64,000 bases of DNA from Alphaproteobacteria bacterium (GCA_965232515.1 CBDDPY010000002.1:6144001-6208000); one strand, 5' to 3'. Shown: positions 32,050 to 46,586, counted from the stretch's first letter. The notes: a model not told the origin generated them from the sequence alone. Translations and numbers: made by a program.

Positions 32050-33555
32050 GTGGCACTACGGCGGTTGTGGCGTGCCTTGGCGCTGGGCAAAGTGCAGCGG
32101 CGTTCGCTGCCTACCTGCGCCCTGCTTGCTGCCACCGCATTTGCGACCGCTGCCGACGCGCAGGTGTATGTCGATCCCAGCGTTCTGAACGACTTGCAGA
32201 GCCGGTTGGATGCGCAGGAGCGCATGCTGGAGCGGCAGCGCCTCGAGATGGAGCAGCAGCGACGCCAGCTGGAGCTGCTGCGCAGCCAGATCCTGCAACG
32301 GCAACAACTCGATCAAATCCGTGGCGCCGGTCTGCCCCCCGCTCAGCCTTACGTTCAGCGGCCGATTCCGGCCGTGCCTGGCGCCGGGATTCAGACGACC
32401 CAGGCCGCGCCGCGGCCCGTCGCGCCGGTGCCGGTAGCGCCGCAACCCGTGGCGCCGCAGCCGGTCGCCCCTCGACCCGCGGCGCCGCAGCCTGTCGCGC
32501 CGCAGCCTGTCGCGCCGCAGCCTGTCGCCCCGCAGCCCGTCGCACCGCAGCCAGTCGCGCCGGAAACACCCCAGCCGGTCGAGACGCCACCGGTGGAGGC
32601 GCCCGCGCCAGCGGCACCGACCGAGACCGCATCCACCGAGCGCGAGCCGGATCAGGGCGAGCAGTTATTGTTGGAGGCGGGCGGCATCCTGCTGCGGCCC
32701 GGCCGGCTGCAGATCGAGCCGAGCCTGGAGTACTCGCATTTCTCCAGCGACCGCGTGGTGATCGCCGGCTTCACGATCTTCGAGGCCATCATCATCGGCA
32801 CGATCCGGGTCGACGACCTGGAGCGCGATATCCTGACGGCCGGCCTGACGGCACGATACGGTCTGACCCGCCGCCTGCAGATCGAGGCGCGGGTTCCTTA
32901 CACATATCGGCGCGACGACGAAATTCTCGGCGTCGGCACGGCCGACCAGGAAGACCGCCAGATCAGCGCCGACGGCATCGGCGATATCGAGGGCACGATC
33001 TCTTACCAGGCGCTGTTCCGGCGCGGTTGGATTCCAGACGCGATCGTCCGGGTGCGCGGCAAGGCCCGCAACGGGCGCGACCCATTCGACGTTGATCGCG
33101 AGACCACGACCGGCGGTACCGTGCGTCTGGACGAACCGCCGATCGGCAGCGGCTTCTTCGCGGTGTCGCCCGGCGCGACCTTTGTCTGGCGGACCGATCC
33201 GGTGGTGTTCTTCACTGGCGGCAGCTACACCTTCAACCTGGAGCGCGATTTCGGCGAGGAGTTCGGCGAGATCGATCCGGGCGACTCGATCCAGTATTTC
33301 GGCGGTATGAATATCGCGCTCAGTGATCGCGCCGCGATCAACTTCTCGTTCATCAACGAGTTCACGATGAAGACCAAGCAGGGCGACGTGAAGGTGCCCG
33401 GCACGGACACCAATGACGCCCGTGTCGTGCTGGGCGCGTCCGTGGGCCTGACGCAGAACATGTCGCTGCTGGTGTCGGCCGCGGCCGGGCTGACCGACGA
33501 GTCGCCCGACTTCCAGTTCACGGTCAGCGTGCCGATCAATTTCGATTTGTTCTAA
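32050..33555 (+). CDS. FapF-like outer-membrane amyloid secretion channel
   Basis: Signal peptide, coiled coil (LNDLQSRLDAQERMLERQ), Pro-rich linker, then barrel (GILLRPGRLQIEPSLEY, GIGDIEG, GLTDESPDFQFTVSVP) ending in Phe; beside Fap-type subunit genes. Confidence 0.82.
   Translation: MALRRLWRALALGKVQRRSLPTCALLAATAFATAADAQVYVDPSVLNDLQSRLDAQERMLERQRLEMEQQRRQLELLRSQILQRQQLDQIRGAGLPPAQPYVQRPIPAVPGAGIQTTQAAPRPVAPVPVAPQPVAPQPVAPRPAAPQPVAPQPVAPQPVAPQPVAPQPVAPETPQPVETPPVEAPAPAAPTETASTEREPDQGEQLLLEAGGILLRPGRLQIEPSLEYSHFSSDRVVIAGFTIFEAIIIGTIRVDDLERDILTAGLTARYGLTRRLQIEARVPYTYRRDDEILGVGTADQEDRQISADGIGDIEGTISYQALFRRGWIPDAIVRVRGKARNGRDPFDVDRETTTGGTVRLDEPPIGSGFFAVSPGATFVWRTDPVVFFTGGSYTFNLERDFGEEFGEIDPGDSIQYFGGMNIALSDRAAINFSFINEFTMKTKQGDVKVPGTDTNDARVVLGASVGLTQNMSLLVSAAAGLTDESPDFQFTVSVPINFDLF
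32407..32556 (+). repeat. 10 x 15-bp tandem repeat encoding (APQPV)n
   Basis: Units such as GCGCCGCAGCCTGTC; units 6-8 identical; in frame. Confidence 0.95.
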
Positions 33556-33580
33556 GGCGCGGCAGCCCAATCTTCTGACC

Positions 33581-33666
33581 GTCATGCTGGCGTAGGCCAG
33601 CATCCACTGGCCGCGCAACACATTTGCGAGTCGACAAACTTGGATCCTGGCCTGCGCCAGGATGAC
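33581..33666. repeat. Inverted pair of REP-like elements (REPIN-like)
   Basis: GTCATGCTGGCGTAGGCCAGCATCCA (33581-33606) and TGGATCCTGGCCTGCGCCAGGATGAC (33641-33666) between convergent genes. Confidence 0.75.
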
Positions 33667-33690
33667 GAACGGGTCAGGCGTATCGGCGGT

Positions 33691-34698
33691 CTATTCGGTC
33701 TTGGCCGCGACCAAACCAGCTGACGCTTTTTCGGCGAAGCTGTTGTCGACGAAGCCGGCGAGCTTTGGCGCCTCGCGCAGAACCTGACCGATGGTCAGGC
33801 CCCAGCCGTTGTATTCGGCGTCGGCGATGTCGTTTTGGGTCCAGACGAAACGGTCGTAGCGGGTCATCTCGACCCATTCGCGCGCTTGTTCGTCGCGCAC
33901 GACCACGCCCTGGCGGTGGAAGAAGATGATCAGCAGCCGCGCCGCGTCGTCCGGATCCTCGTTGATGTAGTTCAGCGCGCGGACCCAGCCGTTGACGAAC
34001 CGCTGCACGGTAACCGGCGATTTTTCGATCATCTCATTGCGGGTGATCAACGCCTGCGCGCCGATGACGCCGAGGGTGCCGACGACCTGATCGGCGGTGA
34101 GCAGATGCCGGGCCTGACCGCCGTCGATCAGTACCTTGGTGAAGTGCTGCGATTCGAACACCGCGTCGGCGAGGTTGTTCTTGAAGGCGCTCGTCAGTTG
34201 GTCGGCGGTCAGCAGGCGGATCTGAACATCGCCGGGCTGCAGCCTGGCCTGATTGAGCAGGCGCATGAGCACCGGGAACGCTTCCGAACCGTTGCCGACG
34301 CCGACGGACTTGCCCTTCAGGTCGGCGACGCCGTTCAGATCCTGGTTGCTCTTCGGCACGACCAGCTCGGTCTTGGTGCCCCAGCCATTCAACGAAATCG
34401 CTTTGACCGGCAGGCTGGAGGCGGCGGCGACGAGAAACGTCCGTTGCGGCACGGCCGCGAAGTCGCTGGAGCCGACGCCTATGGAGCGCAAGGCCGCGGT
34501 GGCCGAGGTGATGGCCAGGCCGCTGACCAACAGGCCCTCCTCGCTGAACAGGCCGCGTTCGATGCCGACGATGGCCGGCAAGGCGTCCCAGCCGCTGCTG
34601 AACGACAGGCGTACCAGGGAAGACTCCTGCGCCGACGCCCGCACCGCGAACACGGCAATCAGCGCTGCGAGTACAACCGAAATCACTTGTCGTTTCAT
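33691..34698 (-). CDS. ABC-type substrate-binding protein (SsuA/NMT1-THI5-like), orphan
   Basis: Signal peptide; GLFSEEGL, VADLKGKSVGV, VQRFVNGWVRALNYINEDPDDAA. Confidence 0.85.
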   Translation of the reverse strand: MKRQVISVVLAALIAVFAVRASAQESSLVRLSFSSGWDALPAIVGIERGLFSEEGLLVSGLAITSATAALRSIGVGSSDFAAVPQRTFLVAAASSLPVKAISLNGWGTKTELVVPKSNQDLNGVADLKGKSVGVGNGSEAFPVLMRLLNQARLQPGDVQIRLLTADQLTSAFKNNLADAVFESQHFTKVLIDGGQARHLLTADQVVGTLGVIGAQALITRNEMIEKSPVTVQRFVNGWVRALNYINEDPDDAARLLIIFFHRQGVVVRDEQAREWVEMTRYDRFVWTQNDIADAEYNGWGLTIGQVLREAPKLAGFVDNSFAEKASAGLVAAKTE

Positions 34699-34743
34699 GG
34701 CCGACCGTCCTGACGCATTGTCGCTGCCGTTATTAGACGCCTC

Positions 34744-35559
34744 TTAGGGCGCCATGCTCAACACCGATTGCAGACCGGGGGCGGCGGCGAGGTCCTGCAC
34801 CACGTTGATCTGCACGAACAGATTGTTGTTCACGATGTTGAAGTCGCCGGGCACCTGGGTGATCTGGAAGATGCCGCTGGCGCCGTTCAGGTTGCCGACG
34901 ACGGTCTGGATGGTGACGTCGCCGTTGTTACCGACATTGACATCGGCCAGTGACGGCGCCGGCGCTGGCGGCCCGTTGACCACGAGGTTGCCGGTTGGAT
35001 TGCTGTTCGGCTGGATCGAGCCGCTGAAGATCACGCTGAAATCGAGGCCGTTGAAGGCACCGCGTTCGGTGGCCATCTCGCTCTCGTCCAACGCTGCCCA
35101 TTGCGGATTGAACACGGTCGCCGCGGCAAGGTGCCGGACGCCATCGATCGAACCCGCGGGCACACCATCGTCGGCGACGACCTCGACCAGGCTCGGCGGC
35201 AACGACATCACCCCCGACGTCGTGTCGTTTTTGGTCGATGTCGTACCATCGTCGGTCGGCGCGACCGGCGCGCGTTTGGCGAGCGTCGCCCAGTCGATCT
35301 TGGCGACGCTTGGCAGCTGCGCGACCTCGATCTCGACCTCGCCGCGCGACATCTCGACCTCTTTGGTCGTCACCGTCTGCGATTCCATATGGACGCGGAC
35401 GACGGGCACGAGCGCCGGCGCCAGCTCGGGCGGCGCCGAGGTCTGGGTTGTCGATGGTGGTGCGCAGGCGGCCAGCGTGAATAGCAGTGCGGCCGCCAAT
35501 GACCGCGGACGGGCGTTCGATCGCCGCCGCGGTTCAGTGTCTGGATTGGCGCATGGCAT
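34744..35559 (-). CDS. FapE-like protein with lipoprotein signal
   Basis: Lipobox LAAC; ALDESEMATERG motif; C-terminal repeat NGASGIFQITQVPGDFNIVNN; start overlaps the C39 peptidase stop. Confidence 0.65.
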   Translation of the reverse strand: MPCANPDTEPRRRSNARPRSLAAALLFTLAACAPPSTTQTSAPPELAPALVPVVRVHMESQTVTTKEVEMSRGEVEIEVAQLPSVAKIDWATLAKRAPVAPTDDGTTSTKNDTTSGVMSLPPSLVEVVADDGVPAGSIDGVRHLAAATVFNPQWAALDESEMATERGAFNGLDFSVIFSGSIQPNSNPTGNLVVNGPPAPAPSLADVNVGNNGDVTIQTVVGNLNGASGIFQITQVPGDFNIVNNNLFVQINVVQDLAAAPGLQSVLSMAP

Positions 35560-36233
35560 CAGAATTCACCTGCCAGCGGCCGGATCGTCGCCAAGTTGCG
35601 ACTGAGCAGCATCATGATTTCTTCGGACGGCCCCTTCACGACCTGGCTGGTGCGGAAGGACTCGTCGCCTTGCCGTTGCTGATCCACGACCGCGAGGATG
35701 ATGTTTTTCCACTCGGATTCGAATTGGTCGAGCGGGCGGGACAGGTTGCCGAAGGCGGGATCTGCGATCAGAACCCGGCCATTTTCGACGCCCTTTACGA
35801 CAACGAAATGCGCATAGCCACGGGTGTTGATAAGGGTGATGACGGGCACTTTGAGCTGAAGCAGGTCGCGTACGTTGGCCAATTGAAAGCCGTCGGCCGC
35901 GTAACCGCGCGCTTCCGCCGCCTTTTTCATTTCGAGCATCGAGAAGCCGCGCTTCTGGATCTCCTCGACGTCGCCGGCCGCGACCATGTCGTCGATCAGT
36001 TCGCGTTCGGTGCGGGGGTCGCTGTAGAAGTAGGTGAACAGCGTCGCCATCGCCGCGGCGCCACAACTGACATCGAAACCCTGCCGCACCACATTCTTGA
36101 AGCGCAGACCGGCCATGCTCTCGACCGGCACATTGAGCACGGTGTTGCCCGGAATGGCAAAGGTTTGCGCGGCCGCCGGCGCTGACAGCGCGAATACGGC
36201 AAGCAGTACGGTTATGAGGCGCCGGGCGGTCAT
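35559..36233 (-). CDS. C39 family peptidase (FapD-like)
   Basis: RQGFDVSCGAAA (Q, C), AHFVVV (H), IADPAFGN (D); signal peptide; GFSMLEMK. Confidence 0.92.
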   Translation of the reverse strand: MTARRLITVLLAVFALSAPAAAQTFAIPGNTVLNVPVESMAGLRFKNVVRQGFDVSCGAAAMATLFTYFYSDPRTERELIDDMVAAGDVEEIQKRGFSMLEMKKAAEARGYAADGFQLANVRDLLQLKVPVITLINTRGYAHFVVVKGVENGRVLIADPAFGNLSRPLDQFESEWKNIILAVVDQQRQGDESFRTSQVVKGPSEEIMMLLSRNLATIRPLAGEF

Positions 36234-37066
36234 TGCAGCGGCACCACATTGACCGACATCGCCAGCGCATTGCGCGCGATGTTGCCGTCGCCGGACGCCT
36301 GGCCGATCTGGGCGATGCCGCGGAAGTTGGTGAAGGAATCGGTGACGAAATCGCCGCGCGGCCGCTGCAGGCCATCCTCCTGGTAGATGGTCGTCAGATG
36401 GTTGTTCGCCACCTGCTCGTCGAGCGTGATCGCGTTCAGCGGCGACAGTGTCTGCGGGTTGTCGGCGATGCCGAGCGCCAGCGCGTTGGTTTGCTGGTTC
36501 AGGTTGCCGGCCGATTGATTGACGCCGACGATCCCGGTCGCGTTGTCGAAGCTGTTCATCACCGTATTGTCGCGGGCGACGTCGGTGACGGTAAGCCGGT
36601 TGTCGATCAGCCGGGTCTCGACAATGACCTCCTGCAGCTGCGTTTGATCGGCCGCCGTGCCGAGCGTGACGGCGCGCACATTGGCCTGATTGTTCAGGTT
36701 GCCGACTTCCTGATTGATGCTCATCATCCCGTGGGACTCGGAAAACGATTCGAAGATCGTGGTCCGACGCACCGGCTCCTCTGGCTCGCCGATGAACTTG
36801 ATGAAGGCCGGGTTGTCTTTAAACGTTTCGTAGTAGAGCGTGCCCGCGAGCGGATGCTCGACCTCGTCCTGCGTGATCGTGACGCGATTGCCGATCAGCG
36901 CCTGGTCGACCCTGGCGGTTGCCACCGCGGTGCTGCTGGAGAGCGCAGCGACACCGGCAATATCATTGACGCCAATGGACTGCGCACTTGCGGTAAGCGG
37001 CAGGATCGCCACGACGGCGACCGCGCCTGCCAGCGCAGCGTTGCGCCCTGGTCCTCTCCACGACAT
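36230..37066 (-). CDS. Fap-type amyloid minor subunit (FapB-like)
   Basis: Signal peptide; three repeats: SFSESHGMMSINQEVGNLNNQAN, SFDNATGIVGVNQSAGNLNQQTN, SFTNFRGIAQIGQASGDGNIARN. Confidence 0.75.
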   Translation of the reverse strand: MSWRGPGRNAALAGAVAVVAILPLTASAQSIGVNDIAGVAALSSSTAVATARVDQALIGNRVTITQDEVEHPLAGTLYYETFKDNPAFIKFIGEPEEPVRRTTIFESFSESHGMMSINQEVGNLNNQANVRAVTLGTAADQTQLQEVIVETRLIDNRLTVTDVARDNTVMNSFDNATGIVGVNQSAGNLNQQTNALALGIADNPQTLSPLNAITLDEQVANNHLTTIYQEDGLQRPRGDFVTDSFTNFRGIAQIGQASGDGNIARNALAMSVNVVPLQ

Positions 37067-37112
37067 TGCCCGTCACCAAAACCTGCTTATCCAAACGACT
37101 AAATGTCCCAAA

Positions 37113-37150
37113 CGAATAAAAAGAGCGGGGAGGGGGCGAGCCCCCTCCCG
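37113..37150 (-). terminator. Intrinsic terminator/attenuator between major and minor amyloid subunit genes
   Basis: Minus strand GGGAGGGGG-CTCG-CCCCCTCCC followed by CGCTCTTTTTATT. Confidence 0.75.
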
Positions 37151-37163
37151 AGCAAATAGCGGA

Positions 37164-38042
37164 TCAGATATTCGGTGCGCCGATCGTGACCTGCGACGTA
37201 AGCGCCGAGAAGGAAACGACCGAGGCCTGGTTGATGTAGTTGCCGGTGGTCTGGTTGACCGCCGTGATGCCGTTGTTGCCGGTGATCGATGCCGAGATGG
37301 TGTTCGACCGGGCGAAGTTCTCCTCGAACAACGTGTTGTTCTCGTTCTCCTGGCCCAAAGCCGACTCGGACAACGCGGCCGTGCCGTTGATGCCGACCGA
37401 CAGTGACACGGCATTGTGCTGGTTCACCGCATCGCCGGTATTCTGGTTCACGCCGACGATACCGCTGTTGCCGATCACCGAATTGGTCATGCTGTTGACA
37501 CGGGTTTCGTCGAACTTGACGACGACGATCGGCGGCTTGCCGGGTTCGTCGACCGTCTCGGTGCCGGTGTCGTTTTCGACCTGGACGAGGGTGTTGTCGT
37601 CGTTGTCCTGCTCGACCCACGCCTGCGCGTCGGCCGCCGACGATAGGCCGGTGGTCAGCGCGAAGGCCACGACGTTCCCCTGGTTGGCGAAGTTGCCGGC
37701 GTCCTGGTTCACGTGCGTGATGCCGGTATTGGCGTTGATCGAATCGACGATAACGGCGTCGAAATCGAGACCGAGTTCCTCCGAGCCATTGGTGTCATTG
37801 GTGACGAGCTCGTTCTCGGCGTTGACCACGGCCTCGGCTTCGGCCGCGCCTTCCGGCATGATCATCGACTCGACCTGAATGAACAACGCCTTGTCCTTCA
37901 GGATGTCCTCGTCGATGTTGATTTCCTTGTCCTTGTCGAGGAAGGCCTCGACATCGACATCAGCCATGGCCGACCAGGACGTTGTGCCAAGCAGCAGCGC
38001 CGTCGTCAGCCCCAGGCTTGCGTGTAAGAGCTTTCTCATCAC
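37164..38042 (-). CDS. Fap-type amyloid subunit (FapC-like, copy 2)
   Basis: Signal peptide ending AMA; repeats SINANTGITHVNQDAGNFANQGN, SVIGNSGIVGVNQNTGDAVNQHN, SITGNNGITAVNQTTGNYINQAS; GGAG RBS. Confidence 0.8.
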   Translation of the reverse strand: MMRKLLHASLGLTTALLLGTTSWSAMADVDVEAFLDKDKEINIDEDILKDKALFIQVESMIMPEGAAEAEAVVNAENELVTNDTNGSEELGLDFDAVIVDSINANTGITHVNQDAGNFANQGNVVAFALTTGLSSAADAQAWVEQDNDDNTLVQVENDTGTETVDEPGKPPIVVVKFDETRVNSMTNSVIGNSGIVGVNQNTGDAVNQHNAVSLSVGINGTAALSESALGQENENNTLFEENFARSNTISASITGNNGITAVNQTTGNYINQASVVSFSALTSQVTIGAPNI

Positions 38043-38083
38043 TTAGGCTCCCTTCCGTATTCGCTAGGTTGCCGCGACCGGGC

Positions 38084-38875
38084 TTACTGGATCACCGCCG
38101 ACCCGAAGGCCACGATGTTGCCCTGGTTCGAGTAGTTGCCAACCGACTGGTTGACGCCCGTGATGCCGCTGTTGTTGGTCACGGACGTGGTGAGCGTCGC
38201 CAACCGGAAAGCGTTCTGCTCGGTCAGAACCAGCTCGAGATTCAGCTGACCGAGATCGGCTTCCGTCAGGATCGTGCCCGCGCCACCGGCGCCCGTCGTC
38301 ACGGCCATCGAGACGGCGTTTGCCTGGTTGCTGAACACGCCGACGGCCTGGTTGACATGCGTGATGCCGCTGCCGCCTTGCACCGAACCGGTGATCAGGG
38401 CTTCACGCTCCGTGCCGTCAACCGAGTTGAACGGGACGTCGCTGTTGATCTGCTGGGCATTGGCCTGCGCCTCGCCGAAGCTCGGATCGGCGCCCGTCGC
38501 CACGGCCGCGCTGACGGCGTTGCCCTGGTTCAGGAAGTTACCGGAGGCCTGGTTCACGCTCAGCACGCCGGTGTTGGTGTTCGCCGAGTTTTCGATCGTG
38601 TCGGTGCGGAAGGTCTCGACTTCTTCCAGCTCGTTGTTGTCGTTCTTCTGGTAGACCTGCAGATCCGACTCCGCGAACTTCTCGACCATGGCCATCACCT
38701 GCACCTGCAGGAATACGGCCTTGTCCTTCAGGATATCCTCTTGGATGTCCTTGTCCTTGAACTTGAAGATCTCGGCGTCGACGTCGACCTCGCCCGAGCT
38801 CTCCTCTTCTTGCGCCAGCGCCGGACTCGTCATGAGGAGCAGCGCTGCTGCAGTGCTCAAAAGCACGTTTCTCAT
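38084..38875 (-). CDS. Fap-type amyloid subunit (FapC-like, copy 1)
   Basis: AGGAGG RBS; signal peptide ending ALA; repeats SANTNTGVLSVNQASGNFLNQGN, SVQGGSGITHVNQAVGVFSNQAN, SVTNNSGITGVNQSVGNYSNQGN. Confidence 0.8.
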   Translation of the reverse strand: MRNVLLSTAAALLLMTSPALAQEEESSGEVDVDAEIFKFKDKDIQEDILKDKAVFLQVQVMAMVEKFAESDLQVYQKNDNNELEEVETFRTDTIENSANTNTGVLSVNQASGNFLNQGNAVSAAVATGADPSFGEAQANAQQINSDVPFNSVDGTEREALITGSVQGGSGITHVNQAVGVFSNQANAVSMAVTTGAGGAGTILTEADLGQLNLELVLTEQNAFRLATLTTSVTNNSGITGVNQSVGNYSNQGNIVAFGSAVIQ

Positions 38876-39023
38876 GCTTTTTCCTCCTGTTAAATACCGC
38901 TGGTTACCGGCGTTGGCAGTCACTAGGGTGGAAGCCATTCATGAAGCCCACGGGAACCAGCCCGACGGCCCGCCGACGACGGGCCCCGATGAAAGCAGAT
39001 CATTCGGAAGGGAGCGGCGCGTC

Positions 39024-39035
39024 TCCCAAATGGGG
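39024..39035. promoter_or_regulatory. Putative LuxR-type operator box 1
   Basis: TCCCAAATGGGG (reverse complement CCCCATTTGGGA), about 150 bp upstream of the amyloid operon. Confidence 0.5.
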
Positions 39036-39137
39036 TAGCGGCGGCCATTTTTTTTGACACCGATACCCGTGCATGTCGGCTGACTGATGTCGGGGAACGT
39101 CGACAGCATTTTCGTCATCTGAACTTTGTCACCGCAT

Positions 39138-39155
39138 GACCCTCATTTGGGGGTC
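39138..39155. promoter_or_regulatory. Putative LuxR-type operator box 2
   Basis: Near-perfect 18-bp palindrome GACCCTCATTTGGGGGTC. Confidence 0.55.
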
Positions 39156-39416
39156 GCGGCCCGACGGACCTTTGTCTAGCGTGCGGCAACGACAGCGTGA
39201 CGATTGCCGGATTTTGCATCTCTCGACCGCACGGCAATCAGGTGTGCCGGGATTGGCCCCGCGCGCAGAAGGACCTCGCCAGTAAAGGCGTATTGCTGTC
39301 CCAGCGCGCAAGGCCGTCGTGTGTCAGTGTTGATTTGGCCTGTACGGAATTGCGCGTGCGTTGGGGAAACGTGTGGCAGTCCCATGTTCGCGCGTCGATC
39401 TGATGGGATGGGGGGT

Positions 39417-39608
39417 GTGATACAGGCAAACGACAATGAAAAGTCAATTGGCCCATTGACGGCCAAGGAATGGCTCGAACTCGACCACTGGTCGTTTCAG
39501 GAATTGCCGCGGCATGCCTACGCGTTGTTCACGAAGCTGCTTGACGCGCACAAAGTTCCGATCGAACGCTGGCATAGTCAGGATGCGGCCGATGGCCCCG
39601 AGCGCTGA
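39417..39608 (+). CDS. Uncharacterised 63-aa protein (paralog A)
   Basis: GPLTAKEWLELDHWSFQELPRHAY; aligns without gaps to 43522-43713; GTG start chosen from that alignment (alternative ATG 39408). Confidence 0.75.
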   Translation: MIQANDNEKSIGPLTAKEWLELDHWSFQELPRHAYALFTKLLDAHKVPIERWHSQDAADGPER

Positions 39609-39662
39609 CGAAGGTCGATGGCAAATGCCGAAGCTCGTCCGGATACGACGGGTCGCCGCGCG

Positions 39663-40442
39663 CTAGTCTGTCGCCAGGCGCGCATGGAGCGCTTGCAGCA
39701 ACCGCGAAAGCTCGCTTTGACGCCCGGTACCGGTCTTGTCGAACATGTGCTTCAGATGCGTGCGCGCCGTTCCGGTGGTCACACCGAGTTTTTCGGCGGT
39801 GAGATCCAGCCTGTCGCCGCCGGCCAACAACGCCGCAATCTGGCTTTCCGCCGGCGTCAGACCAAAGAGCTCTTCGAGATCGTGGGGCGGCAACGATACC
39901 GGCCGTTCCGGATCGGCAACGAAGACCACGATCGGATCGTGATCGTCCAGGTGCGACGGGTCTTGTCGCTGCAGCCGATATGCGGCGAGTAGAAGCGGCT
40001 GCCGATGATCGTGGCGGTCGATTGCGAGCACGTTCGTTGCCGGATCATCGTCACCGCGCGATCCGTCGCGAACACAGGCGACCATCCGGGCGAGTTCGCC
40101 CGCCTGCGTCGAACTGTCCACGCTCAGTCGACCGGCCGTGATCGACAGCCCGTCATCCTGCGCCACGATCTCATTCACGTATCTGTTCGACCAGAAGACA
40201 TGTTCCTGACGGTCGAGCAGTGCGACGCCAATCGCCAGCCTGTCGAGTGCCGCCGTGACGGCGGTTGTGAATTCGTCTGACGCAGCTGCTGTGCGTGCAA
40301 GATCATCGAGACGGTCGGTCAGAAGCCGACGCTGAGCCGCATCGACCGGGAGGTCCGCGATTTCATCAATGAGCTGAGAGATCGCAACCTGCAGCCGGTG
40401 CGTCGATGCGACCGTATCCGCTCGCTGACGCCCCACGCTCAT
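39663..40442 (-). CDS. PAS-like + LuxR-HTH transcriptional regulator (copy 1)
   Basis: ALDRLAIGVALLD..WSN..DDGL; C-terminal LFGLTPAESQIA..LGVTTGTARTHLKHMFDKTGTGRQSEL. Confidence 0.88.
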   Translation of the reverse strand: MSVGRQRADTVASTHRLQVAISQLIDEIADLPVDAAQRRLLTDRLDDLARTAAASDEFTTAVTAALDRLAIGVALLDRQEHVFWSNRYVNEIVAQDDGLSITAGRLSVDSSTQAGELARMVACVRDGSRGDDDPATNVLAIDRHDHRQPLLLAAYRLQRQDPSHLDDHDPIVVFVADPERPVSLPPHDLEELFGLTPAESQIAALLAGGDRLDLTAEKLGVTTGTARTHLKHMFDKTGTGRQSELSRLLQALHARLATD

Positions 40443-40644
40443 GAAATGCCCATCCCGGCATTTTGTTGTGGTTTGTTCTGCACGCGGCCCGAACCCCGAT
40501 GGCGCTTTATTGCTCCCAGACGCATTACTGAAGCAAACGAAGAGCCGACGTGATGTTCAGTACAGATGCAGCATTTACTACTTATATTAGTTTTAGTTCG
40601 AATATAATATTCGTCAGCCCTGAATATTCTCTACCTGTAGTATT

Positions 40645-40661
40645 AGCAAGCAGTGTGCCAA
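40645..40661 (-). promoter_or_regulatory. Sigma54 (-24/-12) promoter
   Basis: Minus strand TTGGCAC-ACTGC-TTGCT, an exact TGGCAC-N5-TTGC match about 200 bp upstream of regulator copy 1 in an AT-rich tract. Confidence 0.7.
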
Positions 40662-40851
40662 ACGTGGTTAATTCCAATTTATCTTCCTGAACAACGCCTT
40701 AAGACCGGCCGTGTGCTGCCGTGGGGCAAGAAAGTGTAAAATCCTCCGACAATGCGTCGAGATTCTTTACAGCTTAGCCAATCCATCCGAAGCAGGATTG
40801 TCCATACGAGGCGTCGTGCGCGTTTGGTTTCGGCGCGCGACCTCGCGTTGG

Positions 40852-41625
40852 TTAGCGGATCTTTCCGTGCAGAGAATGCAGAAGCCGGGCGAGTTCGCTT
40901 TGCCGGCCGGTGCCGGTCTTGTCGAAGATATGTTTGAGATGCGTGCGCGCGGTGCCTGTCGTCACGCCGAGCTTTTCGGCGGCGGAGTCCAGGCGGTCAC
41001 CGCCGGCCAGCCGGGCGGCTACCTGACTTTCGGCCGGCGTCAGGCCGAACAGCGTTTCGAGGTCTGCGGCCGGCAACGACATCGGTCGATCCGGATCGGC
41101 GACAAACACGGCCACGATATTGCGATGTCGTTGCGAGGTCGAATTCCCATGACGTAGTGGAAACGCCGCGACCAGGCATGGCCGCTCATGCCGCCGGCGG
41201 TCGATGGCCAGCACGGCGCCCGTCGTGTCGTCGGCGTCGCCTTGTCGATCGTGCGCCCGCTCTATCAGCCGGCTGAGTGCGTTCGCTTGCTCTGAGTTGT
41301 GCACCCGCAAGCGCCCGGCGGCGACGGTCAGTCCATCATCCTCTGCCAAGATGTCGTCCAGATACCGGTTCGACCAGATAACCGTCCCGGCGGCATCGAC
41401 AAGCGCGACGCCGACAGCGACCCGGTTCAATGTCCCAAGCGCGGCATCGGCGAGCGCTTGCGACTGCGCGACGGCTTTGCTGAGCGCATCGATCCGGGCG
41501 GTCAGCGCGTCGCGTCGTTGGGCGTCGATATCGAGGTTGGAAAGGTCGCGACGCATGCCCAACAAGACGTCGAGCAGCATACCCTGTCGGGTTGCAAGGT
41601 CTGTCCCCTCTCCCCTCATGTTCAT
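40852..41625 (-). CDS. PAS-like + LuxR-HTH transcriptional regulator (copy 2)
   Basis: LNRVAVGVALVD..WSN..DDGL; LGVTTGTARTHLKHIFDKTGTGRQSEL. Confidence 0.88.
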   Translation of the reverse strand: MNMRGEGTDLATRQGMLLDVLLGMRRDLSNLDIDAQRRDALTARIDALSKAVAQSQALADAALGTLNRVAVGVALVDAAGTVIWSNRYLDDILAEDDGLTVAAGRLRVHNSEQANALSRLIERAHDRQGDADDTTGAVLAIDRRRHERPCLVAAFPLRHGNSTSQRHRNIVAVFVADPDRPMSLPAADLETLFGLTPAESQVAARLAGGDRLDSAAEKLGVTTGTARTHLKHIFDKTGTGRQSELARLLHSLHGKIR

Positions 41626-41716
41626 GAAGATCTGGACCTCGGCCCTCAGCTAGGGCTAGCGCAAAATCAAGCCCGTTCAGGTGATCCGAAGTCTGTCAGC
41701 TTGCCGTGACCGTTTT

Positions 41717-41732
41717 TGTGACTTCGATCACT
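41717..41732. promoter_or_regulatory. CRP-family binding site
   Basis: TGTGA-CTTCGA-TCACT (9/10 match to TGTGA-N6-TCACA); weaker TGTGA-ACACAG-TTACG at 41820-41835. Confidence 0.55.
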
Positions 41733-41973
41733 CTTGGTCGCGCGTTACCAGAATGTCACAGCGCGACGATGTCGAAGATGGATGGGCAGAACACGCTCCT
41801 GATCGCTCGCCCTTCCATATGTGAACACAGTTACGTGTCAGTCTTGCGAAACCTGAAGCGTCGCGGCGGCGCGCGTCGATCGTTTTGACCGCGATCAGAG
41901 TTCGTTTCGTTTGCGATGCTGCGCCCCGCGAACCCACAGACGCCGCCGGATGTCCGGTTGCAGGTTTGGCTTG

Positions 41974-41986
41974 CCCCATTTGGGGG
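41974..41986. promoter_or_regulatory. Putative LuxR-type operator box 3
   Basis: CCCCATTTGGGGG about 170 bp upstream of the N-acyl synthase gene. Confidence 0.5.
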
Positions 41987-42150
41987 ACGACTCCGCCAGT
42001 TGCACATGATCAGTTTGGATGCTCGGAAATCTGCCGGCTGGCGTCGAATGTCGGCTTGCCGGCGACAGGAGGCGTTGCCACGACCGGGGGAGGAACGGGG
42101 CACCGGATGCGCAACGGCATCAATACGAATAAGAACGACAGGAGGTTCAG

Positions 42151-43053
42151 ATGCCCGCTCGCGTGCCCCAATCCTGTAAAGCCGGTCGCCTGCCCATTCA
42201 GCACGACACGTCGCTTCTACAGGCGTTCGACAGGTTTTTCAGCGTCGTCACGGCCGACACGCCCGACCTGGTGCGGGAGGCGCACCGTTTGCGTCATCAG
42301 GTCTATTGCGTCGAAAACGATTTCGAGCCGCGCGATCGCAATCCGAACGGACTTGAGATCGACGCCTACGACGCCCGGTCGGCGCATAGCCTGCTGTATT
42401 TCGCACCGAGCCGACGGTTTATCGGAACCGTACGGCTGGTGCTGCCCGATGCCCGGCATCCGTATCGGAGCTTTCCGTTCCAGAGCATTTGCGGTGCGCG
42501 GCTTCGTGCCGTGCGCGACGCGGCGGAGGTTTCGCGGTTTTGCATTTCGCGCGAACTGCGACGGCCGCCGATGACGACAGGGATGCGGATCGCCGCGCTG
42601 TCCGGCGCTGGCGGCGCCCCGGCGACCGTCGACGCGGTCGACGAGGGTCGCCGGATCCTGCCTTATGCGGCCATGGGTCTGGTGCGCGGCCTTGTCGAGA
42701 CGAGTATGGCCAATGGGGTCAAGCACTGGTTGGTTTTGGCGGCGCCGACACTGTTGCGATTCCTCGCCGGCTTCGGCATTCACCTTGATCCCGTCGCGCC
42801 CATGGTCGACTTCCATGGCCCGCGCGTGCCCTGTTGTTCGAACCTGCAGCAATTGCTGGAGCTGGCACGGCAAGAACGGCCGGAGATTTGGCGCATACTG
42901 ACCGATGACGGCAGATTGGAGGTTCGCGGCGGTTCGTTCGCGTCGCCGATCAAGTCCAGGCATCGACCGGGGCGCGCGGAGCCGCGGCGCGGGGGCCGAT
43001 GGTGGCCCAGAGAGCGGCCGCCGTCCGTCCGACCTCACAGTCACTACACGTAA
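42151..43053 (+). CDS. N-acyl amino acid synthase, FeeM/ExoAT (PEP-CTERM-associated acyltransferase) type
   Basis: AGGAGG RBS; RLRHQVYCVENDFE, GLEIDAYDARSAHSLL, IGTVRLVLP, AEVSRFCIS, DFHGPRVP. Confidence 0.82.
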   Translation: MPARVPQSCKAGRLPIQHDTSLLQAFDRFFSVVTADTPDLVREAHRLRHQVYCVENDFEPRDRNPNGLEIDAYDARSAHSLLYFAPSRRFIGTVRLVLPDARHPYRSFPFQSICGARLRAVRDAAEVSRFCISRELRRPPMTTGMRIAALSGAGGAPATVDAVDEGRRILPYAAMGLVRGLVETSMANGVKHWLVLAAPTLLRFLAGFGIHLDPVAPMVDFHGPRVPCCSNLQQLLELARQERPEIWRILTDDGRLEVRGGSFASPIKSRHRPGRAEPRRGGRWWPRERPPSVRPHSHYT

Positions 43054-43419
43054 ATGTCACGTCGGACGCCTTGATCTGACACTGGCGAGCGCTCACTTCT
43101 GGGTCGCACGAATGCTCATTATCCCCTAATATTCCCGCGGTTCAGGCGATCTGAATTGGGGGTCGGAAAAGTTGGGGGATGGGCATCGCCCACGATGCCG
43201 AAGCCGTGCTCGGCGATGCTCGCGGATCGTGGTTAGCAACGCTGCGGAATCGCGATCGCCTGTGTGGCCGGTACCAACACGAACGACTCAAAAAGACGAT
43301 TACGGGACGGCGGCGGCGTCTCGACGAGGGCTGCCCGGCAATCCAGTACGCAGGACTTGTGGGCATCGGCGCGTTGAACCTAGGTACTTTTCCGGGCTCA
43401 CGCGTCTTGCGGAGGAATG

Positions 43420-43435
43420 TTAAGGATTTGTTAAC
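43420..43435. promoter_or_regulatory. CtrA binding site
   Basis: TTAA-GGATTTG-TTAAC, an exact TTAA-N7-TTAAC match about 90 bp upstream of microprotein B. Confidence 0.65.
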
Positions 43436-43521
43436 ACTTTCGGGAATACAGAGTTGGGATGCGCGAAACTGCCGATACTGCTTTCCTGTCGGACAGCCGT
43501 GTCATTGATCGGGACACGGAC

Positions 43522-43713
43522 GTGAGCTCGGACAACGATAAGAAGCAGAAATTCGGGCCGCTCACCGGCGAGGAATGGCTGGAGTTGGACACCTGGGCAT
43601 TCCAGGAACTGCCGCGCCACGCCTACGATATGTTCAGGAAAGTCGTCGAGAGCCACAACGTGCCGATCGATCATTGGCACGACGACAAGAAGCCGGACGC
43701 GCCGGACGGCTGA
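43522..43713 (+). CDS. Uncharacterised 63-aa protein (paralog B)
   Basis: GPLTGEEWLELDTWAFQELPRHAY; about half of positions identical to paralog A; alternative ATG 43459. Confidence 0.75.
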   Translation: MSSDNDKKQKFGPLTGEEWLELDTWAFQELPRHAYDMFRKVVESHNVPIDHWHDDKKPDAPDG

Positions 43714-43718
43714 TCCCG

Positions 43719-44507
43719 TCAGGACCTGTCGTCGGATTCCGACCGGTTCCAAAGAAGTTTGCCGAGCAACGCGCGGAGCAGGCGACTCAGCTCCCCCTGT
43801 CGGCCGGTACTGGTTTTCTGAAAGATATGCTTGAGATGGGTGCGCGCGGTTCCCGTGGCGACGCCCAATTCCGCAGCCGCGAGATCGAGGCGTTTGCCGG
43901 CGGCAAGGCGTGCGGCGAGCTCGCTTTCGGAATGCGTCAAATCGAACAACGAGGCGATGTGGCCGGCGTCGAGACGCTCGTCGCGTTGCGGGTCGGTGAC
44001 GAACACGGCGACATAATGCGCTGCGGCCGGCGCCGGCTGGTCCAGCGATCGCACGGCGGCATGATAAGAGCGCCTTCCCGATGGTCGCGCCAGCGTAATC
44101 ACGCCGGTCGCCATCTCTCCGTCACCGCAGCGATCGCCGATTTCCCTGATTCGTCGGTGCAGATCCAATGACTGCTTGCGGGTCGACGCACGCAGTTCGC
44201 CGCCGATAATTGACAGGCCGTCAGCCTCAGTCAGTATCTCGCTGCAATAGCGGTTGGCCCAGACGACATGGCAGCCCGGATCGACAACGGCGACGCCGAT
44301 CGACAGCTGATCGAGCGCGGCGAAGCCGGCGAGCGCGAGGTCTTCCGTCGGATTGTCGCCGCGTGCGAATTCAGATTGGCCGGGCGTGGCGGCATGATCG
44401 GTATCCGCATATGACAGCCTGGCCGAACCGCGGTCAGGCGGCCGCCGAGAGCGTGCTAAGCGACCAGAGTTCTCCGTAACGTCCGCCGCGCTATTCTTCT
44501 TGCTCAT
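43719..44507 (-). CDS. PAS-like + LuxR-HTH transcriptional regulator (copy 3)
   Basis: ALDQLSIGVAVVD..WAN..ADGL; LGVATGTARTHLKHIFQKTSTGRQGEL; start uncertain. Confidence 0.85.
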   Translation of the reverse strand: MSKKNSAADVTENSGRLARSRRPPDRGSARLSYADTDHAATPGQSEFARGDNPTEDLALAGFAALDQLSIGVAVVDPGCHVVWANRYCSEILTEADGLSIIGGELRASTRKQSLDLHRRIREIGDRCGDGEMATGVITLARPSGRRSYHAAVRSLDQPAPAAAHYVAVFVTDPQRDERLDAGHIASLFDLTHSESELAARLAAGKRLDLAAAELGVATGTARTHLKHIFQKTSTGRQGELSRLLRALLGKLLWNRSESDDRS

Positions 44508-44856
44508 GGGTCCTCGGCCTCCCTGCCCCTGGAGACGGGCTCGAAACCCCAACAAGATCACCGAAGCGAGTTATGGCCGCTGTCGGTGTATCGGCTCTGA
44601 AAACATCAACGCACCGAGCTTGCACCAAGCGGCGGATTGGTGCGTCATTCGATCGGTGGGCCGTCTACGCGTCGCTGCCGATGCTAACCGGTCGCTCTCT
44701 TGCCCAACCGCGGCCGATCGAATGAAAACCGAAAGATCAATATAACGAGTTTCTTATCGACGGTCGACAACTTCGCCGGCCGCGCGTTTTGCCCCGTGCC
44801 GATGTCGTATTGAACAGTGTGCATGTTCGTCGGCGGATCTGGAAATGGATGGCGAC

Positions 44857-45564
44857 ATGGGATCGGGTCGTTTCAAAACCATCGTCAACCTGGCGGCCAT
44901 ATTGGGGTTGCTGGCGGCCTGTTCGAAAGACGACGCGAATCCGGTAACGGCCGACGGCGCCGGCGACGAGATTAGCGTGATGGATTTCACCGAACCGTTC
45001 CCGCTCGACCCGCCGCCCGAAGGTTGGCGCCACCGGACCTTCTGGACCCGGCCGGCCATGGAAATCGGGTTCGCCGACAAGGACGGCGTCAAGGCGTTGC
45101 GCTGCGAGACGGATGGCAGCGGCTCGATCTTCGGCCGCAACACCGACGTCGCACTCGCGGACTATCCGCTGCTGGCCTGGCGCTGGCATGTGGAACTGCC
45201 GATCGACAGCGATCTCGATGAAGCGACCGAAGCCGGCGACGACCACCCGGCGCGCCTGTTCATTCGCATCGACGACGGGGCGGGCGAGGAACGCTACCTC
45301 GAGATTATTTGGAGCAACCGGAAGTACGCGCCTGGCGACTACAAGTATATCGGCGACTTTCCGCACTATGTGGCCAACGGACACGACGAAAACGCCGGCC
45401 GCTGGCATGACGAGCAGGTCGATCTGCTGGCGATCTATCGGACGATCACCAAGCGTGACGACGCGCCGCGGGTGAAGCTGATCGCCATTTTCTGCGACAG
45501 CGACGATACCGGCAGCCGCAGCATCGCCTATTTCGCCGACGTGCGCCTGCGGCGCGCGGATTAA
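44857..45564 (+). CDS. DUF3047-like lipoprotein
   Basis: Lipobox LAAC; YPLLAWRWHV, GDDHPARLF, DSDDTGS..AYFAD. Confidence 0.78.
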   Translation: MGSGRFKTIVNLAAILGLLAACSKDDANPVTADGAGDEISVMDFTEPFPLDPPPEGWRHRTFWTRPAMEIGFADKDGVKALRCETDGSGSIFGRNTDVALADYPLLAWRWHVELPIDSDLDEATEAGDDHPARLFIRIDDGAGEERYLEIIWSNRKYAPGDYKYIGDFPHYVANGHDENAGRWHDEQVDLLAIYRTITKRDDAPRVKLIAIFCDSDDTGSRSIAYFADVRLRRAD

Positions 45565-45634
45565 GGGAATGTTGAGGCTGGCCGGCTAGGCTTTCCGGCT
45601 CTTCCAGACGATCGACGAGAACGGGAAACGTCCG

Positions 45635-46093
45635 ATGGAACTTGCCGTCGCGCGCGGCCGGATCTCCGGCCCCGTCGCCATCCTTGCGCTGATCGGATTG
45701 CTGCTGACCGGGGCTGCTTACGCCGCCGGTTTCATCAACACGTTGGGCTACGAGAGCCGCCATGCAACGTTTTCCGGCTTCGCCAGCGGGACGCGTTCCG
45801 GAACCAGCGTCGGCCTGAAGCACATGCTGTTCTTCGAAGGGCAGACATTCTATGCGGCCTATGATGCCGAGGTGCGGCAGGGCTCGCTCCGGATCGGCAT
45901 TCTGGAGACCTTCGGGCCGATCGGCGACAAGCCGCATTTCGTCGAGAGCGTCACCGGCAACAGCCGTGGCGAGGTCGTCTACCGCATTCCCAAGACCAGC
46001 GTGTACTCGATTTATTTCGAGGGGTCTGTTCTGGGCGGTGACACGGGCCGTGGCTACGACGTCAGCTACACGGTGCGTTGGGGCGCGCGGTAG
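45635..46093 (+). CDS. Hypothetical membrane-anchored protein (tandem paralog 1)
   Basis: N-terminal TM; NTLGYE, FFEGQTF, GSVLG, VRWGAR shared with the next gene. Confidence 0.75.
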   Translation: MELAVARGRISGPVAILALIGLLLTGAAYAAGFINTLGYESRHATFSGFASGTRSGTSVGLKHMLFFEGQTFYAAYDAEVRQGSLRIGILETFGPIGDKPHFVESVTGNSRGEVVYRIPKTSVYSIYFEGSVLGGDTGRGYDVSYTVRWGAR

Positions 46094-46112
46094 CACGCCA
46101 GTCCGAACGCCG

Positions 46113-46574
46113 ATGCAGGAAGCGACGAGGCCACAACGGCGCAACGCGTCTATCGCGATGTTCGCCATCCCGCTTGTCTTGGTGCTGATGTGGACCGGCT
46201 ACGCGACGGGCTGGCTGAACACGCTGGGATATGAATACCGGCACGACAGGCTGAGCGGCTTCATGGGCGGCGGCGGCCAGGGCGGCAGCTTCGGCGTGAA
46301 CGATTTCTACTTCTTTGAAGGCCAGACATTCTTCGCGCAGTACGACGTCGAGGTGCGCCGGGGCGCGCTGGCGATCGGCATTTTCAAGCTGATCGACAAC
46401 CCGGACGACCGGATCCACTTTGTCCGTCACATAAAGGACAGCGGCCGCGGCGAGGTAACGTTCCGGATTCCCGAGACCGGTTTTTATACGATGTATTTCG
46501 ACGGATCGGTCCTGGGCCACAAATCGCGCCCGGGCATGGACGTCACCTACTCCGTGCGCTGGGGCGTGCGGTAG
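46113..46574 (+). CDS. Hypothetical membrane-anchored protein (tandem paralog 2)
   Basis: N-terminal TM; NTLGYE, FFEGQTF, GSVLG, VRWGVR. Confidence 0.75.
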   Translation: MQEATRPQRRNASIAMFAIPLVLVLMWTGYATGWLNTLGYEYRHDRLSGFMGGGGQGGSFGVNDFYFFEGQTFFAQYDVEVRRGALAIGIFKLIDNPDDRIHFVRHIKDSGRGEVTFRIPETGFYTMYFDGSVLGHKSRPGMDVTYSVRWGVR

Positions 46575-46586
46575 CGCGACGCCCGC

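Follow-up and report, generated by a model that had tools for sequence, protein, structure and literature searches.

A putative PAS-LuxR regulatory island next to a divergent Fap-type amyloid operon in an alphaproteobacterium

The window analysed here is a stretch of 64,000 nucleotides from an alphaproteobacterium (GCA_965232515.1, CBDDPY010000002.1:6144001-6208000), and positions are counted from its first letter. Between 32,050 and 44,507 it contains a Fap-like amyloid locus and, directly adjoining, a regulatory block with three PAS+LuxR-HTH regulators (LuxR1, LuxR2 and LuxR3), two small ORFs, an N-acyltransferase (the synthase) and several operator-like sites (Table 1). The preliminary description of this DNA had reported a Fap-like locus beside a FeeM/ExoAT-type acyltransferase, three paralogous PAS-like+LuxR-HTH genes and two paralogous 63-aa ORFs, with one palindrome upstream of both the amyloid operon and the synthase and with no PEP-CTERM or exosortase genes in the window. 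Every one of these elements was recovered at or near its reported position, the amyloid locus being divergent, and the reported absence held.

Table 1. Features of the amyloid locus and the adjoining regulatory block
Feature	Position	Strand	Evidence or remark
FapF-like outer-membrane transporter	32050..33555	+	NF058560 164 bits, residues 190-498
SsuA/NMT1-type periplasmic solute-binding protein; last gene of the operon	33691..34698	-	PF09084 76.8 bits
Predicted lipoprotein, 271 aa, fapE position	34744..35559	-	position and lipobox LAAC
C39 peptidase, FapD-like	35559..36233	-	PF03412 76 bits (cut-off 22)
Fap-type repeat protein, nearest FapB	36230..37066	-	NF058557 73.5 bits; three repeats
Fap-type repeat protein, FapC-like	37164..38042	-	NF058558 38.6 bits; repeats
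Fap-type repeat protein, FapC-like; first gene of the operon	38084..38875	-	NF058558 53 bits; three repeats
Operator-like site TACCCCATTTGGGAGA	39022..39037	-	PWM 23.2; ~150 nt 5' of the fap start (38875)
Second operator-like site ACCCTCATTTGGGGGT	39139..39154	+	PWM 22.4; divergent fap / small-ORF1 promoter region
Small ORF 1, 63 aa	39417..39608	+	coding signature; alternative in-frame starts at 39384 and 39408
PAS+LuxR-HTH regulator 1 (LuxR1), 259 aa	39663..40442	-	AF2 pLDDT 85; Foldseek top matches VqmA, EL222
PAS+LuxR-HTH regulator 2 (LuxR2), 257 aa	40852..41625	-	54% identity to regulator 1
Operator-like site TGCCCCATTTGGGGGA	41972..41987	+	PWM 23.5; divergent LuxR2 / synthase promoter region
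TIGR03694 (exosortase-associated / FeeM-like) N-acyltransferase, 300 aa	42151..43053	+	TIGR03694 221.9 bits (cut-off 111.95)
Half-site ATCTGAATTGGGGGTCG	43149..43165	+	upstream of small ORF 2; identical in G001
Small ORF 2, 63 aa	43522..43713	+	possibly 84 aa from ATG 43459, common to G001
PAS+LuxR-HTH regulator 3 (LuxR3), 262 aa from ATG 44507	43719..44507	-	paralog of regulators 1 and 2

In profile searches, the FapF-like protein, whose gene is convergent with the remaining locus, was homologous to FapF but divergent; it fell short of the equivalog level (curated cut-off 700 bits) and was composed of an N-terminal coiled-coil-like segment, a Pro-rich PQPVA repeat linker and a β-barrel. The C39 peptidase gave 142 bits with NF058616 (cut-off 330) and 117 bits with FilB. 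The predicted 271-aa lipoprotein had no family match in the profile searches and matched the FapE of the same genome weakly in BLASTP (E 0.002 over 42 aa), and the solute-binding protein, whose position was conserved in the sister species (G001), gave 121 bits with TIGR01728, under its cut-off. In the sister species, the FapF-like gene and the fap-like operon were also found on one contig. The two FapC-like proteins shared 41% identity; the reading frame of the first gene is open to 38938, and its start was placed at 38875, which has an AGGAGG ribosome-binding site and matches the sister species. The three imperfect N/Q-rich repeats of FapB/FapC subunits were represented in all three repeat proteins by the motif G-[IV]-x-x-V-N-Q-x-x-G-x-x-x-N-Q-x-N, with HMM scores below the cut-offs. 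A regular expression found three, two and three copies in 36230-37066, 37164-38042 and 38084-38875, and the third copy of the 292-aa protein was spotted by eye in the translation.

Like the Fap system of Pseudomonas (fapABCDEF), the locus had a FapF-like barrel with an N-terminal helix and Pro-rich linker, a C39 FapD-like peptidase, a gene in the fapE position and three secreted proteins, each with three Fap-type N/Q repeats. Unlike that system, it was not a single fapABCDEF operon: every HMM score was far under the curated cut-offs, no FapA match was found within the locus, a solute-binding protein gene was inserted, and fapF was on the opposite strand. The last arrangement was also seen at about half of 21 other alphaproteobacterial FapF loci, as read from the strands. 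The same genome also contained a canonical fap locus (fapA, fapB, six fapC copies, fapD, fapE and fapF) and a Fil-like locus.

The three regulators of the adjoining block shared pairwise identities of 54%, 44% and 46%. LuxR2 is a tandem duplicate of LuxR1 with a repeat spacing of 1183 nt, and the start of LuxR3, whose ORF reaches 44561, was inferred from its alignment with the ortholog P0015. Their GerE matches were weak and under the cut-off, and no autoinducer-binding domain was matched in any of them. An AF2 model (pLDDT 85) displayed a PAS fold followed by an HTH, and the ten best Foldseek matches were all VqmA (7dwm, 6ide, 6ugl) or EL222 (3p7n), with E values from 7.5e-6 to 1e-4. The predicted structure places the three regulators in the fold class of VqmA, the Vibrio DPO receptor, and EL222, a LOV-HTH protein, with which they share the two-domain architecture of PAS and LuxR-type HTH. 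They differ from both by an extra N-terminal helical pair, an identity of only 13-16% and a low whole-chain TM score (0.24-0.38), and at the sequence level the match of the regulator profile to the PDB was confined to the HTH, outside VqmA or EL222 membership. The small ORFs 1 and 2, convergent with LuxR1 and LuxR3, respectively, were 52% identical to each other. Of the codon changes relative to the sister-species copy, 18 were synonymous and 16 non-synonymous; the differences at codon positions 1/2/3 numbered 13/8/26, which is a coding pattern. The family comprised 13 clusters (50% identity) among 1.84 billion representatives and had the conserved core GPLxGxEWLELDxWAFQELPR.

In addition to TIGR03694, the synthase matched FeeM (PF21926, 35.8 bits; cut-off 27); it had a basic C-terminal tail, and its orthologs at 71%, 65% and 63% identity were all 300 aa long. 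Enzymes of this type produce long-chain N-acyl amino acids from acyl-ACP. A published link of TIGR03694-type synthases to PEP-CTERM is cited in PMC7293339. No exosortase or PEP-CTERM match was present in the 64,000-nt window; the genome carries one exosortase (C2:6573203, 222 bits) and 40 PEP-CTERM matches elsewhere, as well as two further TIGR03694 paralogs, a tandem pair, beside a PepA-type PEP-CTERM gene. The enzyme resembles the exosortase-associated acyltransferases in its score and in the genome that contains it, but differs from them in being flanked by PAS-LuxR genes and lying next to an amyloid locus. This neighbourhood was seen at none of the 21 other TIGR03694 loci compared, of which 19 came from the class sample, one came from Denitrobaculum and one was the tandem pair of this genome.

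The elements of the block and the amyloid operon shared a 16-nt site with the core CCCCATTTGGGG, of which two copies lay upstream of the fap-like operon and one upstream of the synthase. The first fap-proximal site contained the palindrome CCCAAATGGGG at 39025, the second a copy with one mismatch at 39142, and the core at 41974 was 177 nt 5' of the synthase ATG. In the window alone, the palindrome had 6 strand-matches against 2.6 expected, a marginal excess reached in 5 of 100 shuffles. The exact 12-mer occurred three times in the genome, with 3.4 expected from base composition, so it is the placement of the copies, not their number, that stands out. Scanning of the 7.4-Mb genome with the PWM separated the five best copies (21.6-24.8) from the next best (18.9), a ranking that is partly circular because the matrix was built from the same sites. 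All five were intergenic and 37-350 nt 5' of start codons. Three belonged to this block, the synthase-upstream site being the second best of the genome; one preceded a REC-PAS-LuxR paralog heading an H-NOX/kinase operon by 37 nt, and one preceded a haem-peroxidase gene by 58 nt. No site scoring >=11.5 was found at the paralog loci L007, L009 and L010.

Comparison with the sister species showed that the fap-promoter sites at 39022..39037 and 39139..39154 lay in perfectly conserved islands, of 20 nt and 27 nt respectively, as did the small-ORF2 half-site, amid diverged intergenic DNA. One of its contigs carried the two sites together with the fap operon and small ORF1; LuxR1, LuxR2, small ORF2 and LuxR3 likewise lay on a single contig. 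The 1267-bp synthase segment, which includes the site at 41972..41987, was replaced by 26 bp, and no synthase ortholog was found in this assembly (81% complete). In two metagenomic relatives, the synthase orthologs P0125 (71%) and P0127 (63%) matched the LuxR1/LuxR2 orthologs P0006/P0010 and P0007/P0013 in both longest contig (22324; 15213) and contig count, so the synthase-LuxR1-LuxR2 trio appears linked in two more lineages.

These data can also be read as a variable islet that came to lie beside the fap-like operon by chance, with regulators acting elsewhere, such as on PEP-CTERM genes, and with a palindrome that is a structural or unrelated element. In its favour, block content varied: the sister species was without the synthase and the segment at ~44.7-47.6 kb, and no LuxR3 ortholog for the 22324 and 15213 contigs was among the matches listed. 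The block DNA had also diverged faster (70-72% identity to the sister species, against 84% for the fap genes), the GC content of the 36-45 kb stretch (0.57-0.63) was below that of the flanks (0.68-0.70), and the palindrome is short and G+C-rich, with a genome count equal to expectation. Taken as a whole, this explanation appears quite improbable, since the conserved islands were in promoters and not 3' of genes, and the sister species retained both sites on the same contig as the fap operon and small ORF1. Moreover, the site recurred at the amyloid locus of a genome from another family (G181, gene order fapB-C-D-E-PG_binding-F), where a copy scoring 19.6 and identical over 15 nt lay 73 nt 5' of fapB and a divergent 367-aa member of the regulator family (profile E 1e-53) lay 3 kb upstream of fap.

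Two further genomes had such sites, one of 19.4 between two divergent regulator-family genes (G025) and one of 19.6 about 600 nt beyond the end of one such gene (G151), and none reached 19 at 39 other control loci (694 kb; maximum 18.1). Of 23 loci of the regulator family in other genomes, only 3 had a site of >=19, so the operator is not a family-wide property of these regulators, and among 21 other FapF loci the family occurred within ~10 kb at only 2.

The circuit envisaged in the preliminary description had a second half, in which the synthase supplies the signal. In this reading, a diffusible N-acyl amino acid made by the TIGR03694 enzyme would be the cognate ligand of at least one PAS-LuxR protein, giving non-AHL quorum sensing; the synthase-upstream site would provide autoinduction, the small proteins would adjust the receptors, and the circuit would control the amyloid. 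TIGR03694 synthases belong to a GNAT family related to LuxI, and this one matched AHL synthases in the PDB weakly. As in LuxI/LuxR systems, a GNAT-fold acyl-transferring synthase stood beside LuxR-HTH regulators, here between the receptor genes, with a palindrome and a top-scoring operator-like site upstream; the receptor architecture is that of VqmA, a known quorum-sensing receptor, and the trio was apparently linked in the two metagenomic relatives. The regulator family was present in 8 of 14 other TIGR03694-positive genomes and in 48 of the remaining 386, a comparison in which related genomes are not independent and genome size may be a confounder. In contrast to LuxI/LuxR, the receptors had PAS instead of an autoinducer-binding domain, and the synthase scored 20.4 with Autoind_synth, under the cut-off of 24; the sister species dispenses with it at this locus and keeps the three regulators, both small ORFs and operator-like sites. 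The regulator family was absent within ~10 kb of all 21 other TIGR03694 loci, the two families were never close together in the 8 genomes with both, and G181 coupled regulator, operator and fap with no TIGR03694 match in its genome. The synthase as a dedicated signal source was thus not supported, and the full circuit is unlikely. What stood of the original proposal is the probable wiring of regulators to fap, through operator-like sites conserved in the sister species and recurring at G181.

On balance, we slightly favour the interpretation that a regulatory island restricted to this lineage adjoins a divergent Fap-type amyloid operon, with the regulators driving the matrix genes. Because the block of amyloid, regulator, small-gene and synthase genes has one conserved control site, the regulators probably act on the amyloid operon and turn on the fibres. 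Each would be a one-component protein with a coiled N-terminal helix pair, a PAS sensor and a LuxR-type HTH, and the three paralogs may bind the ~16-nt operator CC(C/T)CATTTGGG(G/A)G; a factor other than these regulators could bind it. The predicted targets are the fap / small-ORF1 divergent promoter with its two sites, the LuxR2 / synthase divergent promoter, the half-site upstream of small ORF2, and at least two remote promoters. Upon an input to the PAS domain, the regulators would induce the N-acyltransferase along with the genes for amyloid subunits and secretion. The enzyme would be a co-regulated output, its product an N-acyl amino acid lipid that acts within or on the matrix and could, but need not, serve as a feedback ligand; the site in its promoter, one of the best in the genome, fits co-regulation or feedback. 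The two small proteins may be partners of LuxR1 and LuxR3 that were duplicated along with them.

The proposed arrangement resembles curli, a system unrelated to Fap, in that the gene of a LuxR-HTH regulator, a proposed activator, lies beside amyloid structural and secretion genes; CsgD is described in a passage of PMC8072697 as the LuxR-family master regulator of csg. It differs from CsgD in its sensor, which is PAS and not receiver-like, and in its three paralogs with small partner proteins and a different palindrome as operator. Other members of the regulator family had PEP-CTERM genes as neighbours. In the same genome, two paralogs flank one PEP-CTERM gene and another adjoins the gene of a 1612-aa PEP-CTERM protein; both regulator loci of G025 were within 2 kb of PEP-CTERM genes, and one locus of G220 was within 5.3 kb of such a gene. 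Together, these observations suggest that the regulator family may control secreted matrix proteins.

As stated in the preliminary description, the region at 32-45 kb of the window (G000:C2:6144001-6208000) contained a Fap-like locus beside a block of one N-acyltransferase (the synthase), three PAS+LuxR-HTH regulators (LuxR1-LuxR3) and two 63-aa ORFs. The fap-like operon lies on the minus strand and converges on the FapF-like gene. All three subunits carry the Fap N/Q repeat motif, as a motif search showed. The amyloid locus is Fap-like, but its scores stay below the equivalog cut-offs and it has no fapA. Between the FapF-like gene and that for the binding protein lies an 88-nt dispersed repeat (33579-33666) resembling a REP- or MITE-type element, with 25 copies in the source genome G000 (BLAST) and many copies at contig ends in the assembly of the sister species G001. 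G000 has a second fap locus, which is canonical and contains six fapC paralogs in tandem (L005, G000:C2:7106001-7126000), and also a Fil-like locus. The Rfam scan of 31-48 kb gave no credible match, and the promoter and terminator scan remained at chance level. In public runs, the region was covered by two RNA-library contig sets (30 of 30 bins and 21 bins); coverage in the first was approximately even, intergenic DNA included, and thus does not show transcription. The synthase region was covered in the public-run strains, which are near-identical to, and not independent of, G000.

Features of the fap-like locus, the regulatory block and the operator-like sites
Feature	Position	Strand	Remarks
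FapF-like gene	32050-33555	+	NF058560 164 bits (cut-off 700); N-terminal helical segment, PQPVA-repeat linker, barrel
SsuA-type binding protein	33691-34698	-	member of fap-like operon
271-aa lipoprotein	34744-35559	-	fapE position
C39 FapD-like peptidase	35559-36233	-	
Three secreted Fap-type repeat proteins	38084-38875, 37164-38042, 36230-37066	-	
Small ORF1	39417-39608	+	
LuxR1	39663-40442	-	
LuxR2	40852-41625	-	
Synthase, TIGR03694 acyltransferase	42151-43053	+	222 bits (cut-off 112)
Small ORF2	43522-43713	+	
LuxR3	43719-44507	-	
DUF3047 protein	44845-45564		within segment missing from G001 contig
Two paralogous ~150-aa proteins	45635-46093, 46125-46574		no known family; within segment missing from G001 contig
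SAM methyltransferase with O-methyltransferase dimerisation domain	46587-47627	-	within segment missing from G001 contig
Two operator-like sites	39022-39037, 39139-39154	-, +	divergent fap / small ORF1 promoter
Operator-like site	41972-41987	+	divergent LuxR2 / synthase promoter
Half-site	43149-43165	+	upstream of small ORF2
Operator-like site, perfect CCCCATTTGGGG			37 nt upstream of REC-PAS-LuxR paralog heading H-NOX/kinase operon
Operator-like site, best score in genome			58 nt upstream of animal-haem-peroxidase-family gene

The three regulators are paralogous, with pairwise identities of 44-54%, and LuxR1 and LuxR2 form a tandem duplication with a spacing of 1183 nt. From sequence alone, the HTH was the only part of the regulator recognised. 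The AlphaFold2 model of LuxR1 (29 homologs, pLDDT 85) showed a pair of long helices at the N terminus along with a PAS-type sheet and an HTH of four helices, and its best PDB matches were VqmA and EL222, both PAS+LuxR-HTH one-component regulators and the nearest to LuxR1 in architecture, in agreement with the domain assignment proposed earlier. The small ORFs are protein-coding as judged from codon substitutions, since comparison with the G001 copy gave 13, 8 and 26 differences at codon positions 1, 2 and 3, and of the codon changes 18 were synonymous and 16 non-synonymous. An exhaustive profile search of 1.84 billion representatives gathered 13 clusters of the small-protein family (61-137 aa) with a sharply conserved core; Pfam and NCBIfam gave no match, and the Atlas gave low scores only, leaving the family without annotation. 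The three-helix AlphaFold2 model (pLDDT 69) had no Foldseek match in the PDB, and no relation to the regulators was detected against the N-terminal domain of their longer relatives (hhalign probability <1%). The complex prediction of LuxR1 with small ORF1 (scores 0.01 and 0.12, mark 0.32) neither supports nor opposes binding. The single JGI metagenome match to the small-protein alignment was weak, was overlapped by better ORFs and had no regulator near, and was judged spurious. A conserved TGTTAAGGATTTGTTAAC element (43420-43458), identical in G001 (L037), lies immediately 5' of the small ORF2 ATG at 43459; none was seen upstream of small ORF1.

The palindrome previously noted upstream of both the amyloid operon and the synthase proved to be the core of a 16-nt operator-like site present at both promoters. 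With a matrix built from five copies, those five scored 21.6-24.8 in the 7.4-Mb genome and the next scored 18.9, a ranking that is partly circular because the same copies built the matrix. All five were intergenic and upstream of start codons. Since the exact 12-mer occurred 3 times in the genome against 3.4 expected and the within-window statistic was marginal, the case for the site rests on placement and conservation. In the promoter alignment with G001, both fap sites and the half-site of small ORF2 were perfectly conserved islands amid diverged sequence. Outside the window, a perfect copy precedes an operon that is headed by a REC-PAS-LuxR paralog and also encodes an H-NOX protein and a PAS histidine kinase (L008, G000:C2:3213809-3217060), so that nitric-oxide sensing may be tied to the same regulon, and the best-scoring copy precedes a gene for a 570-aa animal-haem-peroxidase-family protein (L079, G000:C2:3093749-3095534; PF03098, 436 bits). 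In L005, an XRE-HTH+LuxR-HTH regulator adjoins fapF, with a weaker operator-like copy (score 15.8) 156 nt upstream of the regulator.

Among 401 genomes sampled from the class, the regulator family was matched in 57 (E <= 1e-10) and FapF-like genes in 24. There were 25 other FapF matches; of these, 21 loci were examined, the four weakest being left out, and the regulator family was found near FapF in two, in G181 of another family (E 1e-53) and in G169 (E 3e-24). G181 is the strongest comparative case: a divergent regulator-family gene lay 3 kb upstream of a fapB-C-D-E-F operon, and a site scoring 19.6, with 15 nt identical to the window fap site, lay 73 nt upstream of fapB. A site scoring 19.4 was located between two divergent regulator genes of G025, and 20 further regulator loci included one with a 19.6 site and a few with weaker related palindromes. 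Sites scoring at least 19 were thus found at 3 of 23 regulator loci outside the genus; the 39 control loci (694 kb) had no such site, their maximum being 18.1. Mere juxtaposition of the block and the fap locus would fit the fluid content of the block, its lower GC and its faster divergence: one contig of G001, an 81%-complete MAG of the same genus, was 84% identical in nucleotide sequence over the fap-like operon, small ORF1 and part of fapF, and another, with LuxR1, LuxR2, small ORF2 and LuxR3, was 70-72% identical. Against it stand G181 and the conservation of the promoter sites, and mere juxtaposition seems quite improbable. The lower GC of the fap-like and regulatory stretch (0.57-0.63 at 36000-45000, 0.68-0.70 in the flanks) suggests from composition that it is an acquired island. 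A segment at 44845-47627 was missing from the G001 contig. On balance, we favour a reading in which the PAS-LuxR paralogs would bind the common operator-like site and, once bound, regulate the fap-like operon together with the synthase gene, both small ORFs and a few remote genes. The synthase would make a matrix lipid under the same regulation, and the role of this lipid in signalling is putative.

The synthase clearly belongs to TIGR03694, but its neighbourhood is atypical. TIGR03694 was matched in 23 of the 401 genomes, 15 of them over the cut-off. Two further paralogs in G000 adjoin a PepA-type PEP-CTERM gene; this tandem pair (L004, G000:C2:4826000-4831000) lies beside a 721-aa ThiF-like/nitroreductase-like fusion, the PepA-type protein and an ECF sigma factor. 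In G001, 26 bp stand in place of window 41762-43028, the segment with the synthase and its site. The incomplete G001 assembly yielded orthologs of its two paralogs but none of the synthase itself. Orthologs P0125 (71%) and P0127 (63%), both of 300 aa, were recovered from a collection of 5.8 billion proteins. Their longest-contig values (22324 and 15213) equal those of the LuxR1 orthologs P0006 and P0007 and the LuxR2 orthologs P0010 and P0013, and because these values coincide, the synthase-LuxR1-LuxR2 trio is probably ancestral and was lost in part in G001. The same agreement countered a recent insertion of the synthase peculiar to G000, which was rejected in favour of loss in G001. The search of genome contigs gave a single true relative, in Denitrobaculum (38%).

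A full quorum-sensing circuit would fit the architecture, the operator-like site in the synthase promoter and the apparent synthase-LuxR1-LuxR2 linkage in two relatives. Such a circuit is nevertheless fairly unlikely, since G001 has no synthase at the locus, G181 has the regulator, the site and fap but no TIGR03694 match, and the regulator family was found within ~10 kb of none of 21 other synthase loci (19 other loci, the Denitrobaculum locus and the tandem pair of G000). The regulator family occurred in 8 of 14 other synthase-positive genomes and in 48 of the remaining 386, related genomes not being independent. Of the circuit postulated in the preliminary description to control the amyloid, the link of regulator, site and fap is supported by the conserved sites of G001 and by G181, and the synthase as signal source is not supported; in the co-occurrence check proposed there, the regulator family was near FapF at two of 21 other loci and near none of the 21 other synthase loci. 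It is unlikely, in our estimate, that the locus encodes a new cell-to-cell signalling circuit in which the exosortase-type N-acyl amino acid synthase would produce the autoinducer sensed by VqmA-like PAS-LuxR receptors, the new ~63-aa family would modulate the receptors, the CCCCATTTGGGG operator would mediate autoinduction and the Fap-type amyloid would be the collective output. If it did, G001 would count as a variant that is blind to the signal or eavesdrops on it.

Regulator-family members often adjoin PEP-CTERM genes. In G000, a PEP-CTERM neighbour was found at two of four other paralog loci (three of five other paralogs); such genes lay within 2 kb of both G025 regulator loci and within 5.3 kb of one in G220, and a PEP-CTERM match was absent in six of ten regulator-positive genomes checked. 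No description of the arrangement had been known at the outset, and our literature search likewise found no PAS-LuxR regulator or operator for fap and no link of a TIGR03694 synthase to an amyloid locus; the sections available of PMC7293339, PMC8776678, PMC8072697 and PMC6173800 do not describe it, and those of the last, a 2018 review, still pose the regulation of fap operons as an open question. In its logic, the arrangement most resembles CsgD with curli. The locus is a concrete, testable candidate for fap regulation, in which a regulator family goes with a 16-nt operator-like site that two distantly related alphaproteobacterial lineages have at their fap promoters. It also connects two gene families hitherto associated with PEP-CTERM matrix proteins to matrix material of a second kind. 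Were the product of the synthase the ligand, this would constitute a new signal-receptor pair.
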